From contig JAEVZY010000357.1 in the NCBI GenBank assembly GCA_023392035.1, positions 1 to 62,305 on the forward strand: 62,305 bases of DNA, read 5' to 3'. Every line of letters starts with the position of its first letter. The first letter of the stretch is position 1. Positions 448 through 53,087 of the stretch are shown piece after piece. The translations under genes and the position numbers were made by a program. This DNA is from Pseudomonadota bacterium (GTDB lineage: Bacteria; Pseudomonadota; Gammaproteobacteria; Burkholderiales; Burkholderiaceae_D). The notes under the pieces are model-generated. The model did not search any database. It saw only the letters and a program-made list of their open reading frames with translations, and was not told the DNA's origin.

Positions 448-1758
448 TCAATGCGACTCGAAGCGCGAGCCTTGGTGCAACTCCAGGCGCAATTTTTCGC
501 GCGCCTCCAGCGCATCGACCAACGCCGCATAGGTCGCCAGGCTGGTCTCGCTCAAGCCCCTGCGCACCACCAGCAATTGGCCAATGCTGATCTCGCCGGC
601 CGCATAGGCGCGCCCGGCGCGGTCGGCCGCGCTTTGGTCCAGCGCCAAGGCCGCTTGATGGGCGCGCGCGGCCTGGTCAAGTCCAGTCACCGTGCGCACC
701 AGCACATCGAACTCGGCGCCCACCGTCTGCTCCACCAGGGCACGGCGGCGCGCACTGGCCTGGGCGTCGGCCGCGGCCGCGGCGGCGGCGGAGCGGCGAT
801 GCACCGAGCCGAGCGGCATCGAGACCGACAGGCCGGCAATGCGCTCGGCGCCGCCGCGTTCAACGATCACGAAAGCGCCCACGGTCGGATCCGGCTTGCG
901 CTCCAGATCGCTGCGGCGCGCGCTGCGTTGGGCAATCGCCTCGTCCGCCAGCGCCAGTCGCAAGGCGTGATTGGCTTGCAGGAAGCGCGTGCGCGTGCTG
1001 CTGTCGACGCCATTGCCGGGCGCCGCCGGCAGGGCCAGCAAGGACTGCGCTTCGCCGGGAAGGCCCAGCGCCGGAAAGCGCGCCCGCAATTCGGCTTGGG
1101 CCGCGTCCTGCGCCGTGCGGGCGCCGGCCAGCGCGGCGCGCGCGCGGGCCTCTTCGGCCTGCGCGATTTCCAGGTCCATCGGGGCGGCATCGCCGGCGCG
1201 CACGCGCTTGCCGGTCAGGGCTACCAGTTCTCCCGCCAGGCTTGCGCTGCGCGCCACGGCGGCGCTGGCCTGGCGTGTGCGCAGCAGCTTGAACCACAGC
1301 GCCAGCATCTGGCGCGCGGTTTCATGCTCGGCGTCATCCAGGGCAATCTCGCTTTGATTCAGCGTGGCCTCGGCCAGGGCCGCATCGGCATCGGACTTGC
1401 CCCACAGGCGCAGCGGGCGTTCGATGGCAAGCTGGCCTTCCGCAAAATTATCGGAAGGCTCGCGCACAAAGCGGTTCTGGCGGATGGCACGCACGACGTA
1501 TTCGGCGCTGCCGGCGCGTATGCCCTCGGCGCGCGCCGTGGCGCTTTCACGCATGGCGCGCGCGGCTGCCACCGCGGGCGATGCATCCAGCGTGGCGCGC
1601 ACTGCTGCCGCGCTGGGCAGATAGTCTTGCTCCGATGGTGCGAGCTCCGACGGTGCGACCTTCGATGGCGCGACCTCGGATTGCGCCCAGGCCGCGGATG
1701 CGCAGCCCAGGACGCATGCCAGAAAGCCCAGGCGCAGTTTCATATCGATCTTGTTCAT
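448..1758 (-). CDS. TolC/CzcC-family outer membrane efflux protein
   Basis: Signal peptide, Ala-rich helical body, AYAAGEISIGQLL motif; start overlaps the RND permease stop. Confidence 0.88.
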   Translation of the reverse strand: MNKIDMKLRLGFLACVLGCASAAWAQSEVAPSKVAPSELAPSEQDYLPSAAAVRATLDASPAVAAARAMRESATARAEGIRAGSAEYVVRAIRQNRFVREPSDNFAEGQLAIERPLRLWGKSDADAALAEATLNQSEIALDDAEHETARQMLALWFKLLRTRQASAAVARSASLAGELVALTGKRVRAGDAAPMDLEIAQAEEARARAALAGARTAQDAAQAELRARFPALGLPGEAQSLLALPAAPGNGVDSSTRTRFLQANHALRLALADEAIAQRSARRSDLERKPDPTVGAFVIVERGGAERIAGLSVSMPLGSVHRRSAAAAAAADAQASARRRALVEQTVGAEFDVLVRTVTGLDQAARAHQAALALDQSAADRAGRAYAAGEISIGQLLVVRRGLSETSLATYAALVDALEAREKLRLELHQGSRFESH

Positions 1759-4700
1759 TGTCCCTGCCCTCCTGCTGCGATTTGCGTCTGCGCCTGCCTG
1801 GCTTGCTTTGAAATTCCGTAGCGTTCAAACAGCAGCGGCAGCAGCAGCAAGGTCAAGGCGGTGGAGCTCACCAGGCCGCCGGACACCACGATCGCCAGCG
1901 GGCGCTGTATTTCCGACCCGGGACCGCTGGCCAGCAGCAGCGGAATCATGCCCAGCGCCGTGATGCAGGCGGTCATCAGCACCGGACGCAGGCGGTCATG
2001 CACGCCGCGCCGCACCGCTTGCGCCAGGTCCAGTCCCTCGCTCAGCAAGGCGTTGAAGTGCGACACCAGCACCACGCCATTGAGCACCGCAATCCCCAGC
2101 AAGGCGATGAAGCCGACCGAAGCCGGCACCGACAGGTACTGCCCGGAGATGCGCAAGGCGGCGATCCCGCCCACCAGCGCAAAGGGAATGTTGCCGATCA
2201 CCAGCAGCGCCTGGCGCATCGAGCCGAAGGTCAGCATCAGCAACAGGAAAATGGCGCCCAGCGCCAGCGGCACCACCAGGCCCAAGCGGGCGGCGGCGCG
2301 CTGCTGGTTTTCGAACTGGCCGCCCCAGACCACGCGCAAGTCCTTGGGCAGGTTCGGCAACCTGGCCACCGCCGCCTGGGCGTCGGCGACAAAGCCGGTC
2401 AGGTCGCGCCCGTCCACATTCACCTGGACGATGGCAAAGCGCGCGCCGTTTTCATGGTTGATGCGCACCGGGCCATCCAGGCGCCGCACTTCGGCCAGCG
2501 AAGTCAGCGGCCAGCTCGTGCCGTCGGGCGCCGTCACCGTCAGGCTCAGGAAGCGCTCGGGCGTCTGGCGCAAGTCATCGCTGCCGCGCAGGATCAGCGG
2601 CGTGCGCACCACGCCCTCGGGTACGATGCCGACGCGTTCGCCTTCCACCTGCGCCCGCAGCAAGGCTTGCAAGGCGTCGCCCGAGAGCCCGGCCTTGCCG
2701 ACGGCGGCACGGTCCACCGCCAGCGTCAGGTATTGCACGCCTTCACTGGCCGCGGCAATCACCTCGGCCGCGCCCGGCACCTTGCGCATCTGCTCGGCAA
2801 TGTCGCTGGCCGCCTGGTTGATGGCGTGCAGATCGTTGCCGAAGACCTTGATCGCAACGTCGCCGCGGGTGCCGGTGGTCATCTCGGCAACCCGCATTTC
2901 GATGGGCTGCGTGAAGCTGTAGATCAGGCCGGGAAAACGCTCCATCACCTTGCGGATCGCGACCGCAATGTCTTCCTTCGATCCGCGCCATTCGGACTTG
3001 GGTTTCAGCACCAGGAAGACGTCGGTCTCGTTCAGGCCCATCGGGTCCAGGCCCAGTTCGTCGGAGCCGATGCGGGCCACGATGGAGCGGATCTCCGGCA
3101 CCTCCGCCAGCAGCGCGGCCTGCACCCGGCGGTTCATGTCCAGCGATGCGTTGAGCGAAATCGAAGGCGCGCTCTGCAACTGCACGATGAGGTCGCCCTC
3201 ATCCATGGTCGGCATGAAGGTCTTGCCGACCGAAGCGTAGAGCGCAACGGCCAGCAGCAATGCGGCGCCGGCCAGGCTGAACACCAGCTTGGCGCGGCGC
3301 TGGCTGAAAGCTTGCAGCCGCTCGAAGCGGGCGGCAATCCAGCGCATCAGCCACGGCGCTTCGTCACCATGCGCGCGCAGCAGCAAGGAAGACAAAGCCG
3401 GCACCACGGTGAAGGCGATCACCACCGAGGCGGCCAGGGCCAGCACGATGGTCAGCGCCACCGGCGCAAACAGCTTGCCTTCCAGTCCCTGCAGCGTCAG
3501 CAAGGGCAGGAACACGATGGCGATGATGGATACGCCGGCCAACATCGGCGCCGCCACATTGCCCACGGCCTGGCGAATGATGGCCGGTCGCAGGTCGGCG
3601 TGCGTCTGTTCAGCATGCGCGCGCGCCAGGGCCGATTCGACGTTTTCCACCACCACCACCGCCGCGTCCACCAGCATGCCCAGCGCAATGGCCAGGCCGC
3701 CCAGGCTCATCAGGTTGGCGGTGAGCCCGGCGTAGCGCATCATCAGGAAGGTGGCGAGGATGGACAGCGGCAAGGTCGCCGCCACCACCAATGCGGCGCG
3801 CAGTCCGCCCAAAAACAGGTACAGCGTCACGATCACCAGCAGGCTGGCTTCCACCAGCGCCTTGACCACGGTATTGGCGGCGCGCGTCACCAGCGCGCCA
3901 CGGTCGTAGAACACGCGGGTGCTCATGCCCTTGGGCAGGCGCGGCGCCAGTTCGTCCAGCTTGGCCTGCACTTGCTTGACCACTTGCGACGCATCGGCGC
4001 CGCGCAGCGCCAGCACCAGGCCCTGCACCGCCTCGCCCTTGCCGTCCATGGATACCGCGCCGTTGCGCGTGGTGGCGCCCAGGCGCACGCTGGCGACGTC
4101 GGCCACCGCCACCGGCGCGCGGCCCTTGTCGGAAACCACCACGATGCGGCGCAAATCGTCCAGCCCGCGCACGCCGCCTTCCACCCGCACCACCCAGGTT
4201 TCGTCATGCTGTTCGACGCGGCCGGCGCCATCGTTGCGGTTGTTGCTCTCCAGTGCCTGGCGCAACTGCTCCAGCGTCACGCCGCGCGCGCGCAGGCGCG
4301 CCGGATCGGGAATCACTTCATAGCTGCGCACTTCGCCGCCCAGCGCATTGACGTCGGCCACGCCGGGCACGGTGCGCAGCGCCGGCCGGATCACCCAGTC
4401 CAGCACTTGCCGGCGCTCAGCCAGCGTATGGGCGTCGCCATCGACGGTGAACATGAACATCTCGCCCAAAGGCGTGGTGATGGGGGCCAGGCCGCCCACT
4501 GCGTTGTCCGGCAGGTCGCGCATCAGGCCGGCCAGGCGCTCCGTCACCTGCTGCCGCGCCCAGTAGGGATCGACGCCTTCTTCGAAATCGAGGGTAACGT
4601 CGCTGATGCCGTATTTCGACACCGAGCGCACGATGGTCTTGTGCGGAATGCCCAGCAGTTCCTGTTCAACCGGCGTGGTGACCCGCTGCTCCACTTCTTC

Positions 4701-4877
4701 CGGCGTCATGCCAGGAATCTTGAGGATGACCTTGACCTGGGTCGGCGCGATATCGGGAAAAGCATCGATCGGAAGATGCATATAGGCCAGGGCGCCGGCC
4801 AGTGCCAGCGCCGCCGCCGCGATCAACACCAGCAAGCGCTGGCGCAGCGCGGCTTCAACAATGCGCCCCACCATCAT
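1755..4877 (-). CDS. CusA/CzcA-family heavy-metal RND permease (system 1)
   Basis: 1040 aa; LPIDAFPDI, NLMSLGGLAIALGMLVDAAVVVVEN, RLRPVLMT and GSEIQRPLA motifs. Confidence 0.95.
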   Translation of the reverse strand: MMVGRIVEAALRQRLLVLIAAAALALAGALAYMHLPIDAFPDIAPTQVKVILKIPGMTPEEVEQRVTTPVEQELLGIPHKTIVRSVSKYGISDVTLDFEEGVDPYWARQQVTERLAGLMRDLPDNAVGGLAPITTPLGEMFMFTVDGDAHTLAERRQVLDWVIRPALRTVPGVADVNALGGEVRSYEVIPDPARLRARGVTLEQLRQALESNNRNDGAGRVEQHDETWVVRVEGGVRGLDDLRRIVVVSDKGRAPVAVADVASVRLGATTRNGAVSMDGKGEAVQGLVLALRGADASQVVKQVQAKLDELAPRLPKGMSTRVFYDRGALVTRAANTVVKALVEASLLVIVTLYLFLGGLRAALVVAATLPLSILATFLMMRYAGLTANLMSLGGLAIALGMLVDAAVVVVENVESALARAHAEQTHADLRPAIIRQAVGNVAAPMLAGVSIIAIVFLPLLTLQGLEGKLFAPVALTIVLALAASVVIAFTVVPALSSLLLRAHGDEAPWLMRWIAARFERLQAFSQRRAKLVFSLAGAALLLAVALYASVGKTFMPTMDEGDLIVQLQSAPSISLNASLDMNRRVQAALLAEVPEIRSIVARIGSDELGLDPMGLNETDVFLVLKPKSEWRGSKEDIAVAIRKVMERFPGLIYSFTQPIEMRVAEMTTGTRGDVAIKVFGNDLHAINQAASDIAEQMRKVPGAAEVIAAASEGVQYLTLAVDRAAVGKAGLSGDALQALLRAQVEGERVGIVPEGVVRTPLILRGSDDLRQTPERFLSLTVTAPDGTSWPLTSLAEVRRLDGPVRINHENGARFAIVQVNVDGRDLTGFVADAQAAVARLPNLPKDLRVVWGGQFENQQRAAARLGLVVPLALGAIFLLLMLTFGSMRQALLVIGNIPFALVGGIAALRISGQYLSVPASVGFIALLGIAVLNGVVLVSHFNALLSEGLDLAQAVRRGVHDRLRPVLMTACITALGMIPLLLASGPGSEIQRPLAIVVSGGLVSSTALTLLLLPLLFERYGISKQARQAQTQIAAGGQGQ

Positions 4878-5944
4878 TGCGCTCCTGCCAGCAGGCCTTT
4901 GAGTGCACCCAGGCCGGCGACCGCCACTTTGGCATTGGCCGGCAAGGCGCCGCGCACGGTGGCATAGGCGTCATCGCTGGATTCGACCATGACCGCTTGC
5001 CAGGCCACGCCGCCCTGCACTTCGACAAACACGCCGGCCTTGCCTTGCACCCAGGCCAGCGCCGTCACCGGTACCCGCAGCCTTGGAATGGCCTCGCCAC
5101 CGGTGTCGGCGGCCAGATGGATGATGGCGGCTACGTTTTCGCCGGCCTGCAAACTGCCGCGTTGCGCCAGCGTGGCGCGCACGCGCAGCGCCCCGGTGCC
5201 GTCGCCGGCCGGCACCACGCCGACCACCTTGCCGCTGGCACCGCGCTGCCGCACCTCGACCCGTTCGCCGCCACGGATGGGCGGCAGATCGCGGCCGACC
5301 AGCAGGTCAAGCTCGAGCGCGCTCGGATCGACAATCTTGAACAAGGGTGCCGCAGCTTCCACCCGCGTGCCCGGTACAGCATGAATTTCGGAGACCAGGC
5401 CGTCGCGCCCGGCCACCATGCGCGCTTCGCCGTTGGCGTTCAGTACCAGGCCGGCGGAGGCCAGCTCAGCCTGGCGCGCATGCAGCATGGCCGCGGCTTC
5501 GCGCGCGTGCGCCTGTGTGCTTTCCCAGCGGCTGGCGGCGATGATGCCGTCCGCATGCAATTGTCGATCGCGTTTCAAGGCCAGTTGCGCCAGCTCCGCC
5601 TGCGAACGCGCTGCGCTCAGGGCGCGGCTGGATTCATACAGTTGCGCACTGGTAAAGCTGGCCAGGGCCTGGCCCTTCTTCACCGGCTGGCCGATGGCCA
5701 CCAGCACCTGCGACACCATGCCGGGATAAGGCGCGGCCACCACATATTGCGCATCGGGGCGCAATACCACGCGGGCGCTGACACCCGCTTCCAGCCTGGC
5801 GGCGTTTTCGGCGGCGGCAAAGCGCACGCCAAGCGCCTGCGCCTGGGTGGGGTTCAAGGCCAGCGTGCGTGCCTGGGCCGGGGTGAGACATGCGAGCGCG
5901 GACGCGGCGATTGCGACAAGCGCCAAACAACGACGGAAAAACAT
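4874..5944 (-). CDS. RND periplasmic adaptor (membrane fusion protein)
   Basis: Signal peptide, lipoyl-like half motifs (GQPVKKGQAL), coiled coil; 4-nt overlap with the permease. Confidence 0.9.
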   Translation of the reverse strand: MFFRRCLALVAIAASALACLTPAQARTLALNPTQAQALGVRFAAAENAARLEAGVSARVVLRPDAQYVVAAPYPGMVSQVLVAIGQPVKKGQALASFTSAQLYESSRALSAARSQAELAQLALKRDRQLHADGIIAASRWESTQAHAREAAAMLHARQAELASAGLVLNANGEARMVAGRDGLVSEIHAVPGTRVEAAAPLFKIVDPSALELDLLVGRDLPPIRGGERVEVRQRGASGKVVGVVPAGDGTGALRVRATLAQRGSLQAGENVAAIIHLAADTGGEAIPRLRVPVTALAWVQGKAGVFVEVQGGVAWQAVMVESSDDAYATVRGALPANAKVAVAGLGALKGLLAGAQ

Positions 5945-6029
5945 TCCTGACTCCAGTGAAATCGAATGAGGATCACGCGCCGGCTGGTGGCAAGCGCGCG
6001 AACGGACCGCATGGCTGCGGTCGGATCAG

Positions 6030-6449
6030 TCAGGAATAAAGCGGAGGGGCTTGCGCGGGCGGCGGCCGGTTGCCGCTGCGCCATTTTTGAAGCTGCGCGG
6101 TGAAGCCACGCGGCAAGGGCCATGACAGGCATGCGCCCAGCACCAGGAGCATTGCACACAAAGCCAGCCAGCTTTCGATCAAGGCCGGATCGATATCCAG
6201 CGCATGGCTGGCGCGCTTGACGCCTTTTTCGACTTCAACCGAAAACGGCTCGCCATGCGGTGCCGAGACTTCCTGTGCACCGGAAGCTTCGTCCTGCAGG
6301 ACCTTGGACAGTCCCATGACTGGCACGTCAAGATGGAAGCCGCCCTGCAGCGGCGTTCCCATATGGGCGTGCAACAGCGGACCCAGGCAATGGATCGCGA
6401 TCAGGACGGTCAGGAAACCGAGTTTGACGAAGTGTGCGAGGCGCCCCAT
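6030..6449 (-). CDS. DUF2946-like leader protein with C-terminal QAPP motif
   Basis: N-terminal hydrophobic segment ending HCLGPLLHAH, a second hydrophobic stretch, C-terminus RPPPAQAPPLYS. Start uncertain (6449, 6485 or 6491). Confidence 0.7.
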   Translation of the reverse strand: MGRLAHFVKLGFLTVLIAIHCLGPLLHAHMGTPLQGGFHLDVPVMGLSKVLQDEASGAQEVSAPHGEPFSVEVEKGVKRASHALDIDPALIESWLALCAMLLVLGACLSWPLPRGFTAQLQKWRSGNRPPPAQAPPLYS

Positions 6450-6586
6450 GAGTATCCGTGGCAGGCGTGGGACCGGGGAAAGCATGAACACGCGAATGCT
6501 AGCACGCGCCCATGCGGCTCCGCCACCCGCAGCACGGCTTCATCGTCCCTGGAAGCTCGCGCTCCTCGCTGGCCAAAGCTTGCTTG

Positions 6587-7684
6587 CTACTTGGCCACCA
6601 CGCTCACCGTCTGCCCCGGCAAGACATCGACCATCCAGATGCCGGCGGTTTTCCGGACCGGCAGTTGCGTGCCGCTGGCGTCGCGCACCACCACGCCGGA
6701 GATGCCGGAGGCCAGCGTTGGAATCTGCACCGTCAAGGGCTCGGTGCAGGCGGGGTCGAAGTTGCCGTTCAGGCTGAGCCGCACCTGGGAACTGGAACTG
6801 AAATCGACCTGCAGCGCCGCCTGCTTGCGGCAGACTTGATAGCGGGCGACGTTGACGAAGGTGTCGATCCAGAGATCGTCGCCGAAGCCCTGCGCGTAAT
6901 CCAGATGGTCGTTCAGGAATTGACTGCTGACCGGGCTCCAGCCGTCGCCGTCTATGCCATGGCCGGCCGCCACATACCAACCGCCCTGGTCCACCATGTC
7001 GGCCAATTGCTGGTTCACGGTCGCCATGGTGTCTTCGGGCGTGCCATGGTTCAGGTCGAAGAAAGCCAAGGTGAAGGGCAAGTCATCGGTCGGGGTGCGG
7101 ATGGCGATGTGGGTCTGCAAGGCCAGCGCGCGCGCCTGCGGTGTGGATGAATGCCAGGGGAAGGCGAAGACGAGCGGCTTGCTGCCCAGCTTGTCGGCCA
7201 GGAGCTTTTGCGACTGCACGATTTCCGTGTTGAGCTGATCCGGGGTCAGGTCCGGCATGCCCAAATCAATTGTATGGGTCATGGAGTGATTGCCGATCTC
7301 ATGTCCGCGCGCCAGCAGGTCCTGCCAGCTTGCCCATTGGTCATCCGCCACCGCGCCGGCAATGATGTAGAAGGATGCCCGCAAGCCGCGCGCCTCGAAC
7401 ATATCGGCAATCGCAAAGCTGGAGGGATAGCCATCGTCAAAGGTGTAGGACGCGGCCGCTTTTTTTCCGCCCTTGAAGCTGGATACCGAGGCCTGGTTCA
7501 GATCCAGGCATTGAGTCAGGATCCGGCAGTTGACCTTGAGCGGCAATATCTCCTGCTGGGTACTGTCGCTGCCCGACAAAAGCGTGGACTGGAGGCCCCC
7601 GTCGGTGGAGCCGCCGCCGCAACCGGCGGCAAACATCGCAAGTACGAATGCGGCAATGCGTAAGCCCTCTCGCCTCGGCAACAT
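6587..7684 (-). CDS. Polysaccharide deacetylase (CE4/NodB) family lipoprotein
   Basis: TFDDG and HEIGNHSMTH motifs; lipobox-like FAAGC followed by GGGS. Confidence 0.85.
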   Translation of the reverse strand: MLPRREGLRIAAFVLAMFAAGCGGGSTDGGLQSTLLSGSDSTQQEILPLKVNCRILTQCLDLNQASVSSFKGGKKAAASYTFDDGYPSSFAIADMFEARGLRASFYIIAGAVADDQWASWQDLLARGHEIGNHSMTHTIDLGMPDLTPDQLNTEIVQSQKLLADKLGSKPLVFAFPWHSSTPQARALALQTHIAIRTPTDDLPFTLAFFDLNHGTPEDTMATVNQQLADMVDQGGWYVAAGHGIDGDGWSPVSSQFLNDHLDYAQGFGDDLWIDTFVNVARYQVCRKQAALQVDFSSSSQVRLSLNGNFDPACTEPLTVQIPTLASGISGVVVRDASGTQLPVRKTAGIWMVDVLPGQTVSVVAK

Positions 7685-9824: not shown

Positions 9825-11648
9825 TCAGCGACCTGCTTGTTTCAAACCGGCCAAGGGCCCGCAATGCGCGGCCGCATCGGACAGCGCTTGCCCATTCGCC
9901 AGGTCCGCGCCACGCCCCGCCGCGCTGACATATGCGGCCACCAGTTTGCGCGCCAGCCTCAGCAAGGCCGCGTCCTTGACGGCGCCATTGGCCTTGCTGC
10001 GCACTTGTCCCAGGCTCCACTTGCCGCCGAGCTCGCGCCGCAATTCGATGGTGGCCAGCCGCTTGCCACGCAGGCGCACGGAAAAAATCCGGCAGGTGCC
10101 GCTGGCGCAGGCGTCGGCATAGCTGCCCACGCAGTGCTTTTGCTCCAGGCCTTCCTGCAGCAGCCGCGCGCCGCTGTCCAGTTCCAGCACTTCATAGCCG
10201 CTGCACTGCCAGTTCGGCAGCAGCGCGGTCCAGTGCAGGTCGCGTTCGGGAGAAATCTGCGTCAGGGCTTCGCGGTGCCAGCGGTCCGAACGCCGGCACA
10301 GCGACTGCCAGCTTTGCCGGCCCGGCAGCGGCGCCAGTTGGTCATGGAGGAAATCGGAAACCTGTTGCGCCTCGTGCGTGAGATTGGCTTCCTGCTCGAC
10401 GCTCATCGCAGCGCGCATGATGCAGCGCAGGTAGATCCTGGCGTTCTCTTCGCGCACCGGGCCCGATCTGCGCGCGCCGCGCTCAAGGATGCGTTGCACG
10501 CCGCGCAAGGCCGGCTCGCAACGCTGCAGCGTCAGCGCCTCGCACTGCAAGGCGCTGGCCAGCAGGTTGATGAAGTAGCTGAATTCGCGCACCCGGTAAG
10601 CCGACAGGCGGAAGTGACCCAGCAGGCAGCGCAGCACCGGCGCGCTTTGCCGGATCAGGAAGCGCCAGCCCTGCTGGCTCAAGCCGGCCGCCACCATGCA
10701 GGCTTTCAGTTCATCGAAATAGGCGCGGCCCAGCGGCAATGCAAATCCGGATGAATGGCGCAGCCCCAGGTCGAGCAAGGGCAAGCCGCGGTCTTCGGGC
10801 GCAAACGGCAGTTCGGCCATGCGCCGCGCGATGCGCGCCGCTTCGGTGAGGGTGATCTCCGAGCCGTAGATGGCGCGGCCCAGGCCCAGCACCTCGGGCT
10901 GGATGACGCTGCGCAAAAAGGCGCCGCAGCGCGAATCGTCGGGCTTGAGCTCGCCCAGCAGGCCCACTTCCACTTCCAGTTCTTCGCGCCGCAACAAGAG
11001 CCGGATGCGGTTGTTGGCCGACCTGAATTGCGAAGTCCAGCAGCCCGGTCCGGGAAAAGTCTGCGAGAGCGCATTGGAGGTCGGCAGCACCGGGTCCAGT
11101 CCATCGGAATACGAATGGAAATGCAGCACCTCATTCAGGGCGGCCGCATCGCTTTCTGACAGCTTGCGCGCGCCGGCAATGGCAATTGCGCAGAACGGCG
11201 CCTGCGCCGCCATGTCGCGCCAGGCGAAGCGCGCATGGCGGTTGATGTAGATCTGCAGCTCGTCGGCGTCGAGGTTGATCAGGAAGCCCCAGGAAATATC
11301 GCCGCAGCTGTCGATGGCGGGATCGGGCAGGAAGGGAAAGCCGGCGTGCCAGGCTTCGAAATCGGACAGTACCGTGAAGACATCCGACCAGGTCAGCACC
11401 CGGCAGGATTCTCCGAGGTAATCTTCAAGGAAGGCTTCGCTCCAGGCGCGCACCGAGGGCGACAGGAAAGGTCCGTCGGACTCGGCCACCAGCATTGTGG
11501 TTTTCGCGTAGGCGCGCAGGCGCTCGCAGCGCACGAATCGCAGGTATTGCAGGAGTTCGGCCAGAATTTGCCCGCAGCCGCGTTCACCGTGAAGGCGAAT
11601 CAGCTTGGTAACGCCGTCAATGCGGAAACCCGCCAGCGCGCCATTCAT
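9825..11648 (-). CDS. PcfJ-like domain-containing protein
   Basis: C-terminal LLQEGLEQKHCVGSY...RIFSVR...LATIEL...QVRSKAN fits the PcfJ-like pattern; N-terminal ~450 aa unassigned. Confidence 0.75.
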   Translation of the reverse strand: MNGALAGFRIDGVTKLIRLHGERGCGQILAELLQYLRFVRCERLRAYAKTTMLVAESDGPFLSPSVRAWSEAFLEDYLGESCRVLTWSDVFTVLSDFEAWHAGFPFLPDPAIDSCGDISWGFLINLDADELQIYINRHARFAWRDMAAQAPFCAIAIAGARKLSESDAAALNEVLHFHSYSDGLDPVLPTSNALSQTFPGPGCWTSQFRSANNRIRLLLRREELEVEVGLLGELKPDDSRCGAFLRSVIQPEVLGLGRAIYGSEITLTEAARIARRMAELPFAPEDRGLPLLDLGLRHSSGFALPLGRAYFDELKACMVAAGLSQQGWRFLIRQSAPVLRCLLGHFRLSAYRVREFSYFINLLASALQCEALTLQRCEPALRGVQRILERGARRSGPVREENARIYLRCIMRAAMSVEQEANLTHEAQQVSDFLHDQLAPLPGRQSWQSLCRRSDRWHREALTQISPERDLHWTALLPNWQCSGYEVLELDSGARLLQEGLEQKHCVGSYADACASGTCRIFSVRLRGKRLATIELRRELGGKWSLGQVRSKANGAVKDAALLRLARKLVAAYVSAAGRGADLANGQALSDAAAHCGPLAGLKQAGR

Positions 11649-46670: not shown

Positions 46671-49382
46671 ATGACCAACGAGCGGCCCAGTCCGGAACAG
46701 CTGCTGGACATGATCAATGCCGAGCAGGCCCGCGCCGCGCGCGGCCGGCTCAAGATTTTTTTCGGCGCGTCTGCCGGCGTCGGCAAGACCTACGCCATGC
46801 TGAATGCGGCGCGGGCCCAGGCCGCCCAGGGCATCGAGGTGCTGGTCGGCATCGTCGAGACCCATGGCCGCAAGGAAACCGAAGCCTTGCTGGAGGGGCT
46901 GCCAGCGCTGCCCCTGAAGGAAATCTCGTATCGGGACAAACAGCTCAGGGAGTTTGATCTCGACGGCGCGCTGGCACGCAAGCCGCAGTTGATCCTGGTG
47001 GACGAGTTGGCGCACTCCAATGTGCCGGGCTCACGCCACCCGAAACGCTGGCAGGACATCGAGGAATTGCTGGCGGCCGGCATCGATGTCTACACCACGG
47101 TCAATGTCCAGCATCTGGAAACGCTGAACGACATCATCAGCGGCATCACCGGCATCAAGGTGTGGGAGACCTTGCCCGACCGCGTGTTCGACATGGCCGA
47201 TGAAGTGGTGATCGTCGACCTGCCGCCCGATGAACTGCTGCAGCGCCTGAAGGAAGGCAAGGTCTATCTCGGCAACCAGGCCGAGCGCGCGATCCAGAAC
47301 TTTTTCCGCAAGGGCAACCTGATCGCCCTGCGCGAACTGGCCTTGCGCCGCACCGCCGACCGGGTCGATACCCAAGTGCGCCAATACCGGCGCGAACAGT
47401 CGGTGGCGCCGGTCTGGCAAACCCGGCAAGCGCTGCTGGCTTGCGTGGGCCCCGGCGAGCGCGGCGCGCGGGTGGCGCGCAATGCCGCGCGCATGGCTTC
47501 GCAAATGAATGCCGACTGGCATGCGGTCTACGTGGAAACGCCGGAACTGGAACACCTGCCCGCCGGCGCTCGCCGCGAGGTGATGGAAAACCTGAAGCTG
47601 GCCTCCAAGCTCGGCGCCGAAACGGCGGTCTTGTCCGGCAACGACGCCGCCGCCGAAGCCGCCATCTATGCCCGCAAGCACAATCTCACCAAGCTGATCG
47701 TCGGCCGGCCGCAGCGCAAGCGCTGGGCCTGGCAGCGTTCCTTCGCCCAGGAACTGGCGGTCAAGGCGCCGGACATCGACTTGATCCAGGCTTCGCAAGA
47801 AAACGCGGCCGGCCCGGCACGGCCAACGGTGGTGGAACAGTTCCAGTCCCTCGAGCATCGCGCCTCATGGCAGGCCTATGCCAAGAGCGCCCTGATCAGC
47901 GCCATTGCCGCCTTGCTGGCCGCGCCCTTGCACACCTTCTTCGACCTGACCAACATCGCCATGGTGTTCCTGCTGGCGGTGGTGATCGTCGCCTCGCGTT
48001 ATGGATTCGGCCCTTCGGTGATGGCGACTTTCCTGAATGTGGCCGCGTTCGACTTTTTCTACGTGCCGCCGCGCTACACCTTCGCCGTCAGCGATGCGCA
48101 ATACATCCTCACCTTTGGCGTCATGCTGGGCGTGGGCCTGCTGACGGCGCACCTGACCACCGGCCTCAAATACCAGGCCAATGTGGCCAGCAGTCGCGAG
48201 AACCGGGTGCGCGCCCTGTATGAAATGTCGCGCGAACTGTCGGCCGCGCTGATGCTTGAGCAAATTGCCGAGATCAGCCAGCGCTTTGCCATGACCGAGT
48301 TCAAGGCGCGCGCCAGCATCTTCATTGCCGACGATGCCGACCAGTTGCAGGAAGTGACCGGCAATCCGGAATTCCATTGCACGGCCGACCCCAATATCGC
48401 CCATTGGGCCTTCGAGCACGCCAGCGAGGCCGGCTGGGGCACCGACACCCTGCCCGGCAGCGCTGTCCTGTATCTTCCGCTCAAGGCGCCGATGCGCGCG
48501 CGCGGCGTGCTGGCGCTGCAACCCGAGCTGGCGGCCAGGACCATGTCGCCCGAGCAAAGCCGCTTGCTGGATACCTTCGCCCGCCTGATCGCCATTTCGA
48601 TCGAGCGCGTCCACTACGTCGAGGTGGCGCAATCCACGACAGTGCAGATGGAATCGGAACGGCTGCGCAATTCGCTGCTGTCGGCCATTTCGCATGACCT
48701 GCGCACGCCGCTGGCGGCGGTCGCCGGCCTGGCCGAATCTTTCCGCTATACCGAGCCGCCGCCGACCCGCCAGCAAACCGAGATCGCCGCTTTGCTGAAG
48801 GACGAGGCCATGCGCCTGAACTCGCTGGTCAACAATTTGCTGGACATGGCGCGGCTGCAATCCGGCACCGTGAAATTGAACCGGCAATGGCAACCGGTGG
48901 AGGAAGTGATCGGTTGCGCCATCAAGGCTTGCGCGGCGCAACTGGGCGGGCATGCGGTGAACGTCACGCTGCCGCCGGACTTGCCCCTGCTCGAATTCGA
49001 CCAGGCGCTGATTGAACGGGTGCTGTGCAACCTGCTCGAAAACGCGGCCAAGTATGCCGGCACAGCGAGCCGGATAGAAATCCGGGCGCGGGCCAAGGAC
49101 ACCGAAGTCAAGATCTGGGTGCAGGACAATGGCCCCGGCCTGCCGGCCGGCATGGAAGAGGCCATCTTCGAGAAATTCGCGCGCGGCCAGACGGAGAGCG
49201 CCACGCCCGGAGTCGGCCTCGGCCTGGCGATCTGCCGCTCGATCATGCAGGCGCATGGCGGCGCTATCAAGGCAGAGAACCGGCCCGAAGGCGGCGCGCG
49301 CTTCACCCTGTTGCTGCCCCTTGGCCAGCCCCCTGCGCTGGCGGCCGAAGACCCAAGCATTGATGCGGAGGCAAACAAGTGA
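46671..49382 (+). CDS. kdpD: Sensor kinase KdpD
   Basis: GVGKTYAML, VDELAHSN, Usp, TM and GAF regions, SHDLRTPL. Confidence 0.96.
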   Translation: MTNERPSPEQLLDMINAEQARAARGRLKIFFGASAGVGKTYAMLNAARAQAAQGIEVLVGIVETHGRKETEALLEGLPALPLKEISYRDKQLREFDLDGALARKPQLILVDELAHSNVPGSRHPKRWQDIEELLAAGIDVYTTVNVQHLETLNDIISGITGIKVWETLPDRVFDMADEVVIVDLPPDELLQRLKEGKVYLGNQAERAIQNFFRKGNLIALRELALRRTADRVDTQVRQYRREQSVAPVWQTRQALLACVGPGERGARVARNAARMASQMNADWHAVYVETPELEHLPAGARREVMENLKLASKLGAETAVLSGNDAAAEAAIYARKHNLTKLIVGRPQRKRWAWQRSFAQELAVKAPDIDLIQASQENAAGPARPTVVEQFQSLEHRASWQAYAKSALISAIAALLAAPLHTFFDLTNIAMVFLLAVVIVASRYGFGPSVMATFLNVAAFDFFYVPPRYTFAVSDAQYILTFGVMLGVGLLTAHLTTGLKYQANVASSRENRVRALYEMSRELSAALMLEQIAEISQRFAMTEFKARASIFIADDADQLQEVTGNPEFHCTADPNIAHWAFEHASEAGWGTDTLPGSAVLYLPLKAPMRARGVLALQPELAARTMSPEQSRLLDTFARLIAISIERVHYVEVAQSTTVQMESERLRNSLLSAISHDLRTPLAAVAGLAESFRYTEPPPTRQQTEIAALLKDEAMRLNSLVNNLLDMARLQSGTVKLNRQWQPVEEVIGCAIKACAAQLGGHAVNVTLPPDLPLLEFDQALIERVLCNLLENAAKYAGTASRIEIRARAKDTEVKIWVQDNGPGLPAGMEEAIFEKFARGQTESATPGVGLGLAICRSIMQAHGGAIKAENRPEGGARFTLLLPLGQPPALAAEDPSIDAEANK

Positions 49383-50068
49383 GCAACCCCTCGCCCAGAA
49401 TCCTGGTGGTGGAGGACGAACCCCAGATCCGCCGTTTTGTCCGCATGTCGCTTGAAGCGCAAGGCTACGAAGTGCACGAGGCCGAGACCTTGCGCCGCGC
49501 GCTCGGGGAAGCCCACAGCCGGGTGCCCGATGTGATCGTGCTCGATCTCGGTCTGCCGGATGGCAACGGCACCGACTTCATCCGCGATTTGCGCAGCTGG
49601 TCCGAGGTGCCGGTGATTGTGCTGTCGGCCCGGACGGCGGAGCAGGACAAGGTACAGGCCCTGGACATGGGCGCCGACGATTACCTGACCAAGCCTTTCG
49701 GCGCTGACGAATTGTTGGCCCGAGTGAGAGCGCAGATTCGCCGTCGCCTGCGGGGATCGGGCGGGGAACACATCATCAGGTTCGGTACCGTCACCCTCGA
49801 TCTGGAGCGCCGCATCGTCGAGCGCGATGGCAAGGCGGTGCACCTGACGCCGATTGAATATCGCCTGCTGGCTTTCCTGGCCAGCAATCCGGATCGGGTC
49901 TTGACCAACCAGCAGTTGCTCAAGACCGTATGGGGCAGCGCCCACGCGGAAGACAGCCACTACGTGCGCTCCTACGTGGCATTCATCCGGAAGAAGATCG
50001 AGCAAGACCCGGCGCAACCGCGCCACATCCTGACCGAAACCGGCGTGGGCTATCGCTTTACGGCTTGA
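49379..50068 (+). CDS. kdpE: Response regulator KdpE
   Basis: LDLGLPD, GADDYLTKPF and TETGVGYR motifs. Confidence 0.95.
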   Translation: MSNPSPRILVVEDEPQIRRFVRMSLEAQGYEVHEAETLRRALGEAHSRVPDVIVLDLGLPDGNGTDFIRDLRSWSEVPVIVLSARTAEQDKVQALDMGADDYLTKPFGADELLARVRAQIRRRLRGSGGEHIIRFGTVTLDLERRIVERDGKAVHLTPIEYRLLAFLASNPDRVLTNQQLLKTVWGSAHAEDSHYVRSYVAFIRKKIEQDPAQPRHILTETGVGYRFTA

Positions 50069-52475: not shown

Positions 52476-52573
52476 TTTCTTGTCGTCGGATTTCTGGACG
52501 CAAGGCGAGCGGCGTTGGCCAAGGCCTTGCATTGCTTTGCATTGCATGCGCCGCTGGCGGCGCCAGTCAGCAA

Positions 52574-52972
52574 TCAGACGACAAAGGGCGGCGCGCGCGA
52601 ATGCGCGCTGGACCACACAAACAGCCGATGCGGTGCCTGGTAGTACAGGAAGGGAAAGCCCGAAGACATTTCGGGGACGGGAAGACCAAAGCCCGCGCTG
52701 GGCGCCATGGCCGGCATCACACCATGGCCGGCGCAGAAGGGGCAGTGTTCCAGATGCGAAGTGGGCGCGGATTTCGAAGCGGAGGCCGGATCGGCGCCAT
52801 CAGGCGCCTTCTCATGGGCCACGCCCATGACCGAGCAGATTTCCATCTGCGCCGCGTTTGCGCTTTGCGCAAGGGTCCAGGCATGGGAAACGGAAGGCGC
52901 AAAAGCGGCCAGGAGGATCGCCAGACAAGCGATCCATGCGGCAAATCTTTGCGTTGTTTTCCCGAGGCCCAT
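52574..52972 (-). CDS. DUF2946 (CruR-like) leader protein
   Basis: N-terminal hydrophobic helix (AWIACLAILLAAFAP), EICS, HCPFC and C-terminal SRAPPFVV. Confidence 0.88.
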   Translation of the reverse strand: MGLGKTTQRFAAWIACLAILLAAFAPSVSHAWTLAQSANAAQMEICSVMGVAHEKAPDGADPASASKSAPTSHLEHCPFCAGHGVMPAMAPSAGFGLPVPEMSSGFPFLYYQAPHRLFVWSSAHSRAPPFVV

Positions 52973-53087
52973 GGGGCGCCATACTAGCAGCAGACACAAC
53001 ACATGTCTCCCGGTAAAACGCACTTCCCGCGCGAAGCATAATCCAGATTAAGAAAACCGGATTCAACACTTCGCGGCAAACGCCAGG

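Follow-up and report, generated by a model that had tools for sequence, protein, structure and literature searches.

How is the level of a heavy-metal efflux pump set when no transcription factor adjoins its operon? The question is raised by a pump operon in a 62,305-nt stretch of burkholderialean DNA (contig JAEVZY010000357.1; "the window" below). A first-pass annotation had proposed that the small ORF at the head of the operon encodes a metal-sensing arrest peptide. We examined this proposal by computational analysis of the locus, its homologues, and the published data on the corresponding operon of Cupriavidus metallidurans CH34.

A small ORF heads an operon for a NimBAC-type pump

All four genes of the operon lie on the minus strand. 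The leader ORF (6030..6449) is followed by genes for a periplasmic adaptor (MFP; 4874..5944), a CusA/CzcA-family RND pump (1755..4877), and an outer-membrane factor (448..1758). The adaptor shares 53% identity with NimB of C. metallidurans CH34. The RND protein scored 965 bits against TIGR00914 and is 78% identical over 684 residues to the N-terminal piece of CH34 NimA, with which it shares the TM4 stretch LGGLAIALGMLVDAAVVVVEN unchanged; its closest solved structure is ZneA (650 bits, versus 569 for CusA). Compared with the DFG...DGA...VEN form, its TM4 motif is missing the first Asp.

The CH34 locus was recognised as nim through the published coordinates of Rmet_5682. The adaptor-RND-OMP order of the window is that of nimB-A-C, and on sequence grounds the window pump is a NimBAC orthologue. 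In C. metallidurans, nimBAC is an HME3b RND system (PMC7019866, PMC6266692, PMC9045368); passages on the operon in these papers write it as nimBAC and describe Rmet_5683, the leader-family member that likewise heads it, as a "putative uncharacterized protein" with no role assigned. Unlike the window RND gene, nimA of CH34 is interrupted by an insertion element; in strains NA1, NA4, and H1130 nimBAC is reported to be unbroken (PMC7019866). As stated at first pass, no regulator gene is adjacent to the window operon: polysaccharide deacetylase and CoA-transferase genes lie upstream of the leader, and downstream of the outer-membrane factor gene an ankyrin-repeat ORF precedes the contig end.

The leader ORF runs from an ATG to a TGA (6032-6030), encodes 139 aa, and matches no Pfam or NCBIfam family. 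A GTG at 6491 offers an alternative start, and we took the ATG instead because the close homologues all begin MGR or MQR. Homologues that are 59 to 83% identical, more distant ones (133 to 155 aa) that carry both of the motifs described below, and a coding-like GC pattern by codon position (69/46/71) argue that the ORF is more than a chance frame. It lacks both a Shine-Dalgarno-like motif and the −10 box that most relatives have, and a search of 5850-6750 for a sigma-70 promoter found none.

The protein begins MGRLAHFVKLGFLTVLIAIHCLGPLLHAH. A positively charged n-region (R3, K9) precedes a 17-residue hydrophobic segment (residues 10 to 26; 6372..6422) that falls within an AlphaFold2 helix (residues 2 to 30) and is a signal peptide or else a membrane anchor, with a possible cleavage site between L-H-A and H. 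Directly after it comes the histidine motif H27-A-H29...G37-x-H39 (6333..6371), which lies at the segment's periplasmic end and is presumably the metal-binding sensor; the protein has seven His in total (H6, H20, H27, H29, H39, H66, and H83). A second hydrophobic segment was placed at about residues 91 to 110 (6120..6179) by a hydropathy scan and at residues 88 to 108 by AlphaFold2. It ends about 26 residues ahead of P136 and is followed by a positively charged tail. The C terminus is RPPPAQAPPLYS, with a tail reading PPPAQAPPLYS, in which the proline motif P129-P-P-A-Q-A-P135-P136 (6042..6065) is the presumed pause site. None of the three cysteines (C21, C98, and C107), all situated within the hydrophobic segments, is conserved, and there is no CxxC or CxxxC. 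The AlphaFold2 model, built from 40 sequences, was of low confidence (pLDDT 67.8, pTM 0.29), with two long helices and a disordered loop. The export-like hydrophobic N terminus, the histidines, and the QAPP-containing C terminus reported earlier are thus all present, and the ORF does end 85 nt ahead of the adaptor gene (spacer 5945-6029; adaptor start at 5944).

The leader family keeps three histidines, a terminal APP, and its place before the adaptor gene

The leader family comprises 89 clusters, has no Pfam model, and has members in 41 of 401 sampled genomes of one order. A phmmer search of a representative library gave 13 matches, five of which (1856 to 3554 aa, matched over short stretches) were left out. 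Scans of genome and metagenome contigs with the leader as a single protein found no relative, and a single-protein search in 40 relatives found nothing beyond the window's own genome; one match there with E = 0.009 had stop codons inside and was judged spurious. Scanning with alignment A1 yielded one metagenome locus and three Cupriavidus loci. The matching sequencing runs listed included no RNA run, and each shared at most 15% of the words.

An adaptor homologue is the next gene in 29 of 30 family loci, and the 30th locus ends too early to tell. The upstream genes are unrelated between loci, and among 84 ORFs scanned a regulator-type domain occurred in the upstream flank of only 3 of 32 loci. 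Across 40 aligned members, which are 17 to 83% identical to the window protein, only P24, H27, H29, H39, P135, and P136 are invariant, with P130 and A134 at least 90% conserved. APP stands 3 residues from the stop in 25 of 44 members and 4 residues from it in 14 (39 of 44 together), and its spacing from HxH is 95 to 128 residues, with one outlier. The residue preceding APP is Q in 17 members, H in 11, L in 10, R in 2, and another residue in 4. A strong second hydrophobic segment was found in 27 of the 44, ending 24 to 31 residues before the second proline in 21 of these 27; in 17 of the 44, loop and second segment are missing or degenerate. A semi-conserved mid-protein acidic-Pro motif, (D/E)xP(A/E)(I/V)x(V/M), occurs in the loop in parts of the family only. 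Since this motif and the second transmembrane segment are conserved in parts of the family, the mature protein could have a job of its own.

The check proposed at first pass, whether HxH, APP, and the spacing between APP and the stop are conserved, therefore had a positive outcome in the 40 members aligned and the 44 scanned. The wider architecture that had been described, with a hydrophobic N terminus, a His motif, a proline motif near the stop, an exporter downstream, and no adjacent regulator, likewise holds family-wide. Judged from the alignment, the residues that are kept are those expected of a sensor and a stall site.

Membership in DUF2946 (PF11162) was considered and ruled out. A PF11162 search returned no match for the window protein (E ≤ 1), for 12 members (E ≤ 10), or for P0022, P0023, and P0013 (E ≤ 10); the window's true DUF2946 ORF, the positive control, scored 70.3 bits. 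An hhalign comparison of 33 family members with 20 DUF2946 sequences aligned only 20 N-terminal columns (E = 0.013, probability 3%), and the window protein also lacks CXXC and CXXXC. NCBI names the close relative XQM38844.1 a "DUF2946 domain-containing protein," which counts against the exclusion. The nearest ESM Atlas clusters are unnamed; one for DUF2946 comes in only at 0.91 (102 shared features), and we treat it as a lead and not as evidence. The genuine DUF2946 ORF elsewhere in the window (52574-53023) ends SRAPPFVV and lies ahead of a TonB-dependent receptor. The genuine DUF2946 proteins that we extracted obey the same short motif-to-stop distance rule.

A predicted long-range stem links the end of the leader to the adaptor RBS

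The earlier annotation had pointed to a hairpin just after the leader stop. This hairpin, P2 (GACCGCA-GCCA-UGCGGUC; 6022-6005, minus strand), is present and starts 7 nt past the stop, but its sequence is not conserved, only its place inside a longer stem. P2 was rejected as an intrinsic terminator because no U tract follows it; a search for an intrinsic terminator after the leader ORF found none on the coding strand, the sole match lying within the ORF on the other strand.

The most informative RNA feature is instead the long-range stem itself, P1, which had been overlooked. Its 11 predicted pairs join UAUUCCUGACU (6038-6028), that is, codons Y138 and S139, the stop, and 2 further nucleotides (UAU UCC UGA CU), to AGUCAGGAAUG (5952-5942), which runs from the end of the Shine-Dalgarno sequence through the adaptor start codon (GGAG at 5954-5951, AUG at 5944-5942). 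P1 encloses P2 and a second predicted local hairpin, P3 (5975..5999), whose equivalent in Cupriavidus loci has a compensatory pair. P1 was found in both the MFE and the centroid fold (z = −2.43; 4 of 200 shuffles folded as well). With P135 in the P site, it starts 9 nt downstream of the P135 codon. RNAalifold recovered P1 in 6 of 6 close loci, whose leader proteins are only 24 to 57% identical to the window's, with UUCCUGAC and GGAGUCAGGAAUG kept, and at a C. metallidurans plasmid locus it is rebuilt from other sequence (GCUGUUC:GAACAGC). Covariation within the close subfamily is almost nil, with 7 of 10 pairs invariant, and at one Cupriavidus locus (L034) a P1 pair is broken and uncompensated.

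Across the family, duplexes between an ORF end and its cognate RBS were stronger than noncognate ones (−14.6 versus −12.6 kcal/mol; permutation p = 1e-4, n = 31), also after de-duplication (−13.98 versus −12.34, p = 0.0016, n = 22), a signal inflated by the inherent complementarity of Pro codons (CCN) to Shine-Dalgarno sequences. The ORF-end window accounts for 70% of the pairing probability of the RBS, where its length would predict 36%. We discarded the reading that the RBS is unusually paired, as its mean pairing probability was 0.60 versus 0.59 in shuffles; what stands out is solely the partner with which it pairs. At about one-quarter to one-third of the de-duplicated loci, cognate pairing is no better than random, and 6 of 22 rank 15th or beyond in the A-side test, including L010, L015, L017, and the CH34 locus, L061. 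An RNA structure that shields the adaptor RBS and can be reached by a ribosome at the proline motif is predicted in this family, though not at every locus.

Published data on the C. metallidurans homologue

Rmet_5683 lies directly upstream of nimB in the same operon, and its mRNA was reported at 80 NPKM versus 33 for nimB (PMC9045368). It is transcribed as a leaderless mRNA, with a strong transcription start site at distance 0 from the ATG (PMC9045368). The protein was seen in 0 of 6 proteome conditions, in which NimB stood at 283 to 1412 copies per cell (PMC11647595); its absence from shotgun proteomics is weak evidence, the protein being small and hydrophobic. After exposure to a metal mix, nimB, nimA2, and nimC are listed as up-regulated (PMC11647585); Rmet_5683 does not appear in the supplement of that paper. 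NimB was present at about 900 to 1400 copies without added metal, and its level in the wild type changed significantly only with EDTA (0.3-fold; PMC11647595). Because NimB is this abundant in CH34 without added metal, any switch there would be leaky.

A proposed mechanism and its rivals

We propose that the 139-aa ORF most likely encodes a cis-acting metal-sensing leader peptide of the functional class of CutF and CruR, which would set the level of a NimBAC-type pump without a transcription factor; we put the probability of this reading at roughly 0.55. The first hydrophobic segment would target the nascent chain to the membrane, and the HxH...H motif would become exposed on the periplasmic side. 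About 105 residues further on, the ribosome would reach PPPAQAPP and may undergo an EF-P-type polyproline pause rather than a RAPP arrest. As long as the mRNA is free, codons 138 and 139, the stop, and the next 2 nt are predicted, in a conserved fold, to pair with the Shine-Dalgarno end and the adaptor AUG. A ribosome on P135/P136 or on the stop codon should, from the geometry, cover the 5' strand of P1 and so free the adaptor RBS. Following the CutF precedent, metal bound to the nascent-chain histidines may lengthen the pause and raise pump translation. More speculatively, the second segment, about 26 to 30 residues before the pause site, might on membrane insertion provide a pulling force that ends the pause. 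In its most elaborate form, the leader would be a cysteine-free, histidine-based nascent-chain sensor signalling across the membrane to its own ribosome through a plain polyproline pause, with a transmembrane segment 24 to 31 residues from the peptidyl-transferase centre as force generator and its insertion gated by periplasmic metal; we consider this combination doubtful.

The motif had at first been read as (R/Q)APP, a RAPP-type arrest motif. An intrinsic, EF-P-refractory arrest like those of ApdA, ApdP, SecM, and CruR, with Q in place of R, would fit the distance from APP to the stop, which equals that from RAPP to the stop in CruR and in the window's own DUF2946 protein, and it would fit the 2 of 44 members that have a true RAPP. 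That reading did not survive comparison with saturation mutagenesis, in which all 19 substitutions of the Arg in RAP abolished arrest in ApcA, ApdA, and ApdP, the same being cited for SecM (PMC12992588): Q, H, or L occupies the position in 38 of 44 members. With Arg so rare, this is not a canonical RAPP arrest motif, and an arrest of that type is very improbable here; QAPP, HAPP, and LAPP lack the indispensable Arg, so any pause would be of the weaker polyproline kind that EF-P normally resolves. Such a pause could act on transcription instead, as in CruR, either alone or alongside RBS unmasking: a ribosome paused at APP would shield a rut site formed by the C-rich 3' end of the ORF and the spacer, so that RNA polymerase could continue into the pump genes, and release of the pause would lead to Rho termination. 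Between about 6110 and 5955 the coding strand does carry more C than G (C 42 to 44%, G 24 to 28% in 78-nt windows), resembling the C>G bubble described for cruR (PMC9426467), and the coding strand has no intrinsic terminator. The leaderless mRNA of most branches would place the first ribosome close behind the polymerase, and in CH34 the leader mRNA is 2.4 times the nimB mRNA (PMC9045368) and the nimB, nimA2, and nimC transcripts rise after the metal mix (PMC11647585). The C-richness, however, stems for the most part from Pro and Ala codons, the spacer has a highly structured predicted fold, with two hairpins within P1, whereas rut sites are unstructured, and its 85 nt compare with 162 nt in cruR (PMC9426467). 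We consider attenuation quite unlikely.

A stronger contender, if still an unlikely one, is that the product is just a small accessory or metal-binding protein of the pump, located in the inner membrane and acting in trans. Such a protein would possess two membrane segments and a His-bearing periplasmic loop, its proline tail would be a cytoplasmic structural or interaction motif, metal would have no effect on translation, and coupling to the adaptor gene would arise merely from the terminating ribosome melting P1, since the geometry is such that a ribosome at the stop codon would by itself open the stem. The AlphaFold2 helices, the strong second segment in 27 of 44 members, the semi-conserved loop motif, and the positive tail past segment 2, which suits the cytoplasmic side, are all consistent with such a protein, as is the presence of NimB in CH34 at roughly 1000 copies per cell without metal stress (PMC11647595). 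CzcI of C. metallidurans, a CutF-like protein without a proline motif, has been suggested to be a metal-sensing regulator (PMC9973294). Against it, nothing is invariant besides H27/H29/H39 and APP, 17 of 44 members have lost the loop and second segment or keep them in degenerate form, and the fixed 3- to 4-residue gap between APP and the stop (39 of 44) is not readily explained for a mature protein. The AlphaFold2 loop is also poor (block pLDDT 53 to 56), and a weaker point is the absence of Rmet_5683 from all six proteome conditions even though its mRNA exceeds that of nimB.

Relation to known leader peptides

If the doubtful, most elaborate form were correct, then together with the leaderless mRNA of most branches and the stop/RBS stem it would let NimBAC-type pumps regulate themselves in response to a divalent metal (Ni, Co, or Zn) without any transcription factor, and the metal response of the regulator-less nim determinant would be explained. 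More generally, the leader family would offer a concrete, testable explanation for a well-known operon of C. metallidurans, a model metal-resistant bacterium, whose first gene is annotated merely as uncharacterized yet is strongly transcribed from a leaderless start. The small motif set (three His, APP, and an 11-bp stem), together with a second segment at a defined distance, would also offer a compact system for extracytoplasmic effects on ribosome pausing. To our knowledge, the metal-sensing leader peptides demonstrated at the bench so far, CruR and CutF, involve copper and cysteine motifs alone; with the present family, the principle would come to cover His ligands and tripartite efflux pumps and, probably, divalent metals.

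The RAPP/RGPP arrest peptides ApdA and ApdP, and SecM, are likewise small membrane or secreted proteins with xxPP near the C terminus, encoded upstream of a regulated gene (PMC7897499, PMC10951233, PMC12992588). They arrest with the third codon of the motif in the P site, where the peptide ends in Arg-Ala/Gly-Pro, and the fourth, for Pro, in the A site (PMC12992588), a placement that the window leader would share. They depend, however, on the Arg that the window leader lacks, and they monitor Sec or YidC activity, not metals. CruR (Bp2923) of Bordetella pertussis is closer: it too is an upstream ORF with an exported N terminus at the head of a metal-related operon, with xAPP three residues before the stop and a C-rich 3' region (PMC9426467). 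CruR has CXXC and RAPP at a conserved 45-residue spacing, whereas the window leader has neither the CXXC nor the Arg, and in CruR copper relieves the arrest and so leads to Rho termination of an importer gene, whereas the target in the window is an exporter (PMC9426467).

The nearest parallel is CutF of Rhodobacter capsulatus (cutFOG), in which copper-induced, EF-P-dependent stalling at PPP melts a stem-loop over the cutO RBS (PMC9973294; bioRxiv 10.1101/2025.02.05.636593). Metal-induced expression by such a leader is therefore not a new idea. CutF-like genes ahead of CusB/CzcB-type adaptor genes have already been catalogued (PMC9973294; bioRxiv 10.1101/2025.02.05.636593), and the downstream neighbours include adaptor (HlyD_D23), RND, and OEP genes (PMC9973294). 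With the mechanism class published and pump-linked CutF-like genes on record, the present proposal is an extension and not a new principle. At 139 aa, with PPP and APP at residues 129 to 136 and an 85-nt spacer, the window leader falls within the length and position filters used for CutF-like proteins (PMC9973294). Both CutF and the window leader are shorter than 150 aa and are encoded by the first gene of a metal-homeostasis operon. Both have an N-terminal export or membrane signal and a periplasm-facing metal motif, putative ones in the window leader, and both have PPP or PP within the last 15 residues, followed by a short spacer. In both, an RNA stem, in the window a predicted one, shields the RBS of the next gene within reach of a ribosome at the prolines, and the logic, in the window by analogy, is one in which metal should turn detoxification on.

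The two differ in sensor, topology, RNA, and target. CutF has CxxxC, whereas the window leader has a cysteine-free HxH-x9-H straight after the first hydrophobic segment; the only His-only CutF-like clusters described in PMC9973294 neighbour HupE/UreJ genes, not pumps. Unlike CutF, many members of the window family have a second hydrophobic segment 24 to 31 residues before the prolines. The stem-loop of CutF is replaced by a predicted long-range pairing of stop region and RBS around two hairpins, and the target is a NimBAC (HME3b) pump. Bearing no detectable sequence relationship to DUF2946, the leader family seems to be a new branch, built on histidine, of the metal-sensing leader peptides known from CutF and CruR.

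A candidate leader ORF at the head of a NimBAC-type operon

The candidate leader ORF (139 aa; 6449-6030, minus strand) is the first of four consecutive genes on that strand. It is followed after 85 nt by an RND adaptor (5944-4874, minus strand), a CusA/CzcA-family RND pump (4877-1755, minus strand; TIGR00914, 965 bits) and, last, an outer-membrane factor (1758-448, minus strand). Its product reads MGRLAHFVKLGFLTVLIAIHCLGPLLHAHMGTPLQGGFHLD ... IESWLALCAMLLVLGACLSW ... RPPPAQAPPLYS*, and the GC content per codon position (69/46/71) is compatible with a coding frame. The first-pass annotation had proposed that this ORF encodes a metal-sensing arrest peptide ahead of a heavy-metal efflux operon. 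On re-examination of the sequence, every detail of its description proved correct, including a hairpin at 6022-6005, and the observation as a whole was confirmed. No regulator adjoins the operon: its neighbors encode a polysaccharide deacetylase and a CoA-transferase, along with an ankyrin-repeat ORF beyond which the contig ends. Elsewhere in the window, an ORF of 607 aa (9825-11648, minus strand) that contains a PcfJ-like domain (E = 3e-11) adjoins an oligopeptide-type ABC transporter operon, and 46671-50068 (plus strand) holds a 903-aa sensor kinase ORF and then a 229-aa response-regulator-like ORF, KdpD/KdpE-like by eye.

The closest solved structure to the RND protein is ZneA (650 bits; CusA, 569). 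Searching plasmid and chromid records with the leader by tblastn gave matches in four Cupriavidus metallidurans records. In strain CH34, the homologue (NC_007974.2, 2441584-2442033, minus strand) is followed by an adaptor gene, an RND gene that an insertion element interrupts, and an OMP gene. By published coordinates the CH34 adaptor is nimB (Rmet_5682, 2440395-2441496), and the small gene is Rmet_5683, labelled "putative uncharacterized protein" (PMC6266692; PMC9045368). The window RND protein is 78% identical to the N-terminal piece of NimA and the adaptor is 53% identical to NimB. By these sequence comparisons the pump is assigned to NimBAC, which has been described as putatively Ni/Co-related and placed in the HME3b group (PMC7019866).

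Extent and gene neighborhood of the leader family

Neither Pfam nor NCBIfam matched the window's small protein, and no relevant Pfam model matched any of 12 family members, even at E <= 10. Close homologues were 59-83% identical and distant ones about 30%. A profile search returned 89 clusters at E <= 1e-5, with "hypothetical protein" as the only name wherever one was given and none (0/89) carrying a precomputed Pfam domain. Family members were present in 41 of 401 sampled genomes of the window's order and in 7 of 401 from a phylum-wide sample, these being the window's own genome and six others, all from the same order.

The gene following the leader was a homologue of the window's adaptor in 29 of 30 loci, the 30th locus stopping 207 nt past the ORF. 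The intervening spacers were mostly 48-180 nt (308 nt in one locus, L003), lengths that depend on our choice of start codons. The genes 5' of the leader varied by locus (transposases, transaldolase, UDG, MFS, ribosomal protein L9 and others); upstream of the leader, L016 and L019 carry a CDF-family cation-efflux gene and L013 a CopD-like gene. A regulator-type domain was found in the upstream flanks of only 3 of 32 loci, in a scan of 84 of 87 candidate ORFs that omitted three window ORFs already annotated. The leader-pump unit seems to travel on mobile DNA, since transposase genes (IS66 Orf2-like and DDE_Tnp_1) lie just 5' of the leader in L003 (G163:C1) and L004 (G178:C1), and two C. metallidurans copies (L062 and L063) sit on plasmids typed as conjugative or mobilizable.

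Conserved histidines and a proline tail

Across an alignment of 40 members, sharing 17-83% of residues with the window protein, P24, H27, H29, H39, P135 and P136 were invariant, and L26, P130 and A134 were conserved in at least 90%. The conservation expected of HxH and (R/Q)APP therefore held for H27 and H29 and, among the 44 sequences used for motif counts, for the position of APP, which lay 3 or 4 residues from the stop in 39 (3 in 25, 4 in 14, 5 in 2 and 1-2 in 2). It did not hold for the preceding residue, which was Q in 17, H in 11, L in 10, R in 2 and another in 4. One outlier, L028 (G065:C52), has the tail TPPAQAP and then TAG, the stop replacing the usual second proline; this member may have decayed, or it may be a variant that pauses at termination itself. 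The spacing from HxH to APP had a median of 105 (quartiles, 100-111; 44 sequences). A second segment was strongly hydrophobic in 27 of the 44, ending 24-31 residues before the second proline in 21 of those 27, and AlphaFold2 run on the family alignment gave helices at 2-30 and 88-108 with a low-confidence loop (pLDDT 67.8).

RAPP-type arrest, which the first-pass annotation had made the working part, was rejected. Arg precedes APP in only 2 of 44 sequences, and this residue is irreplaceable in the RAPP peptides tested, all 19 Arg substitutions in ApcA, ApdA and ApdP having raised reporter read-through, with the same cited for SecM (PMC12992588). With Q, H or L at the Arg position, a polyproline-type pause is the only kind left for the leader. 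Both APP and PPP are motifs that depend strongly on EF-P.

A predicted stem joins the ORF end to the adaptor RBS

In both the MFE and the centroid folds of 6075-5925, UAUUCCUGACU, made up of Y138, S139, the stop codon and 2 nt, pairs with AGUCAGGAAUG, which spans the end of the adaptor SD GGAG through the AUG. This long-range stem, P1, encloses two hairpins (fold, -55.4 kcal/mol; z = -2.43). The local hairpin at 6022-6005 was the wrong choice of working part. RNAalifold recovered P1 in six loci whose leader proteins are just 24-57% identical to the window's. This alignment says little either way on P1, because 7 of its 10 pairs never vary; compensatory pairs were present in one enclosed hairpin. 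The UCC codon for the terminal Ser and the adjoining UGA-C were retained, and the residues before them varied (LYS, QFS, LAS and HFS). One plasmid locus of C. metallidurans has UCA for this Ser and re-forms the stem one step upstream (GCUGUUC:GAACAGC). Distant members have an equivalent pairing by different sequence, for instance CCUCUAGA:UCUAGAGG in L006 and AUUCCCUC:GAGGGAAU in L027. Within the close subfamily, UGA is followed by C in the window (6029-6032) and in L004, L005, L032-L035, L062 and L063. UGA-C is a weak termination context in E. coli; since the same bases belong to P1, the context itself may or may not be under selection.

Pro codons are intrinsically complementary to an SD, and we therefore used the partners from other loci as the pairing control. 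Cognate duplexes between ORF end and RBS averaged -14.6 kcal/mol versus -12.6 for noncognate ones (permutation p = 1e-4, n = 31), and -13.98 versus -12.34 with look-alikes removed (p = 0.0016, n = 22). Overall RBS pairing was not above that of shuffles (0.60 versus 0.59); 70% of the RBS pairing probability fell on the ORF end, versus 36% expected from length. At about one-quarter to one-third of loci, CH34's among them, cognate pairing was no better than random.

The third and fourth motif codons of RAPP peptides sit in the P and A sites (PMC12992588). By this geometry, the P135 codon (6047-6045) would occupy the P site in the leader ORF, and the 5' strand of P1 begins at 6038, 9 nt downstream. 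Since a ribosome protects roughly 12-15 nt past the P-site codon, one with P135 in the P site would reach about 7 of the stem's 11 nucleotides, and one at the leader stop codon would cover all 11.

Apparently leaderless transcripts and the CH34 homologue

In 23 of the 34 family loci, the leader start codon is preceded at a distance of 5-9 nt by a TANNNT box that matches TATAAT at 4 or more of 6 positions, versus 0 of 31 adaptor start codons and 1.9% of random positions. Only 2 of the 34 leaders have an SD-like motif ahead of them. The window ORF and its three closest Cupriavidus relatives have no TANNNT box before the start codon. Judging from L003-L031, L061 and L063, leaderless mRNAs appear to be the rule for translation of this family, holding for most of its members.

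The published CH34 start site map places a transcription start (1025 +/- 113 reads) at 2442033 (minus strand), "0 bp upstream of Rmet_5683", with GCTACAATCC at -15 (PMC9045368). Converted to our coordinates, this start falls on the A of the Rmet_5683 ATG, making the mRNA leaderless. Small hydrophobic proteins are easily missed by proteomics. The Rmet_5683 protein is entered as "NF" (not found) in six proteome conditions (PMC11647595), and the gene is reported to form one operon with nimB (80 versus 33 NPKM; PMC9045368). The CH34 wild type contained 873 NimB copies per cell in the control condition; following metal shock the number was 1203 (D = 0.8), and under EDTA it was 283 (0.3-fold, D = 1.9). 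The corresponding values in strain AE104 were 1412, 1320 and 1034 (PMC11647595). With a metal mix, nimB, nimA2 and nimC are listed as up-regulated (PMC11647585). These data fit a leader that is transcribed without protein accumulation and downstream genes that respond to metal, by whatever route.

Alternatives and comparison with known systems

The results leave room for CruR-like Rho attenuation between leader and pump, for which a C>G region at 6110-5955 counts, and for an accessory protein that acts in mature form and is simply coupled in translation to the adaptor, for which the second hydrophobic segment and a semiconserved loop motif count. Neither excludes the leader model. The outline of the first-pass annotation, a candidate metal-sensing leader that would switch the exporter on, appears right.

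The window also holds a genuine DUF2946 ORF (52574-53023, minus strand; PF11162, 70.3 bits), which contains HCPFC and ends SRAPPFVV, with a TonB-dependent receptor gene (50103-52616, minus strand) directly downstream. Judged by gene content, this is the CruR arrangement and a predicted second, canonical metal-sensing leader of the window. The Pfam search used this ORF as its positive control. Among 61 genomes of the order, the Pfam DUF2946 model found genes in 17 and no matches at new-family loci; NCBI names one family member "DUF2946 domain-containing protein", an assignment that our Pfam search did not reproduce. A profile-profile comparison of 33 family members with 20 DUF2946 proteins aligned only the N-terminal laP..HA (E = 0.013, probability 3%). 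In both, the first hydrophobic segment ends similarly and the tail follows the rule of xPP, about 3 residues and a stop, whereas the new family lacks the CXXC motif and the Arg of DUF2946. We therefore file it beside DUF2946, as a putative functional counterpart and not as an established member.

The relevant precedent for the leader is CutF, whose PPP motif stalls upon Cu binding on the periplasmic side and whose regulation requires EF-P; the ribosome stalled there opens a stem-loop that covers the cutO RBS (bioRxiv 10.1101/2025.02.05.636593; PMC9973294). The principle has already been shown with CutF, and CutF-like genes linked to pumps have been catalogued, which makes the leader less novel than the first-pass annotation held. 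The new features are the histidine-only family itself, which lacks both a Pfam model and the Arg and is specific to NimBAC-type pumps; a predicted, conserved stem between stop codon and RBS; an mRNA that is often leaderless; and the placing of a second membrane segment at a defined spacing from the presumed pause site.
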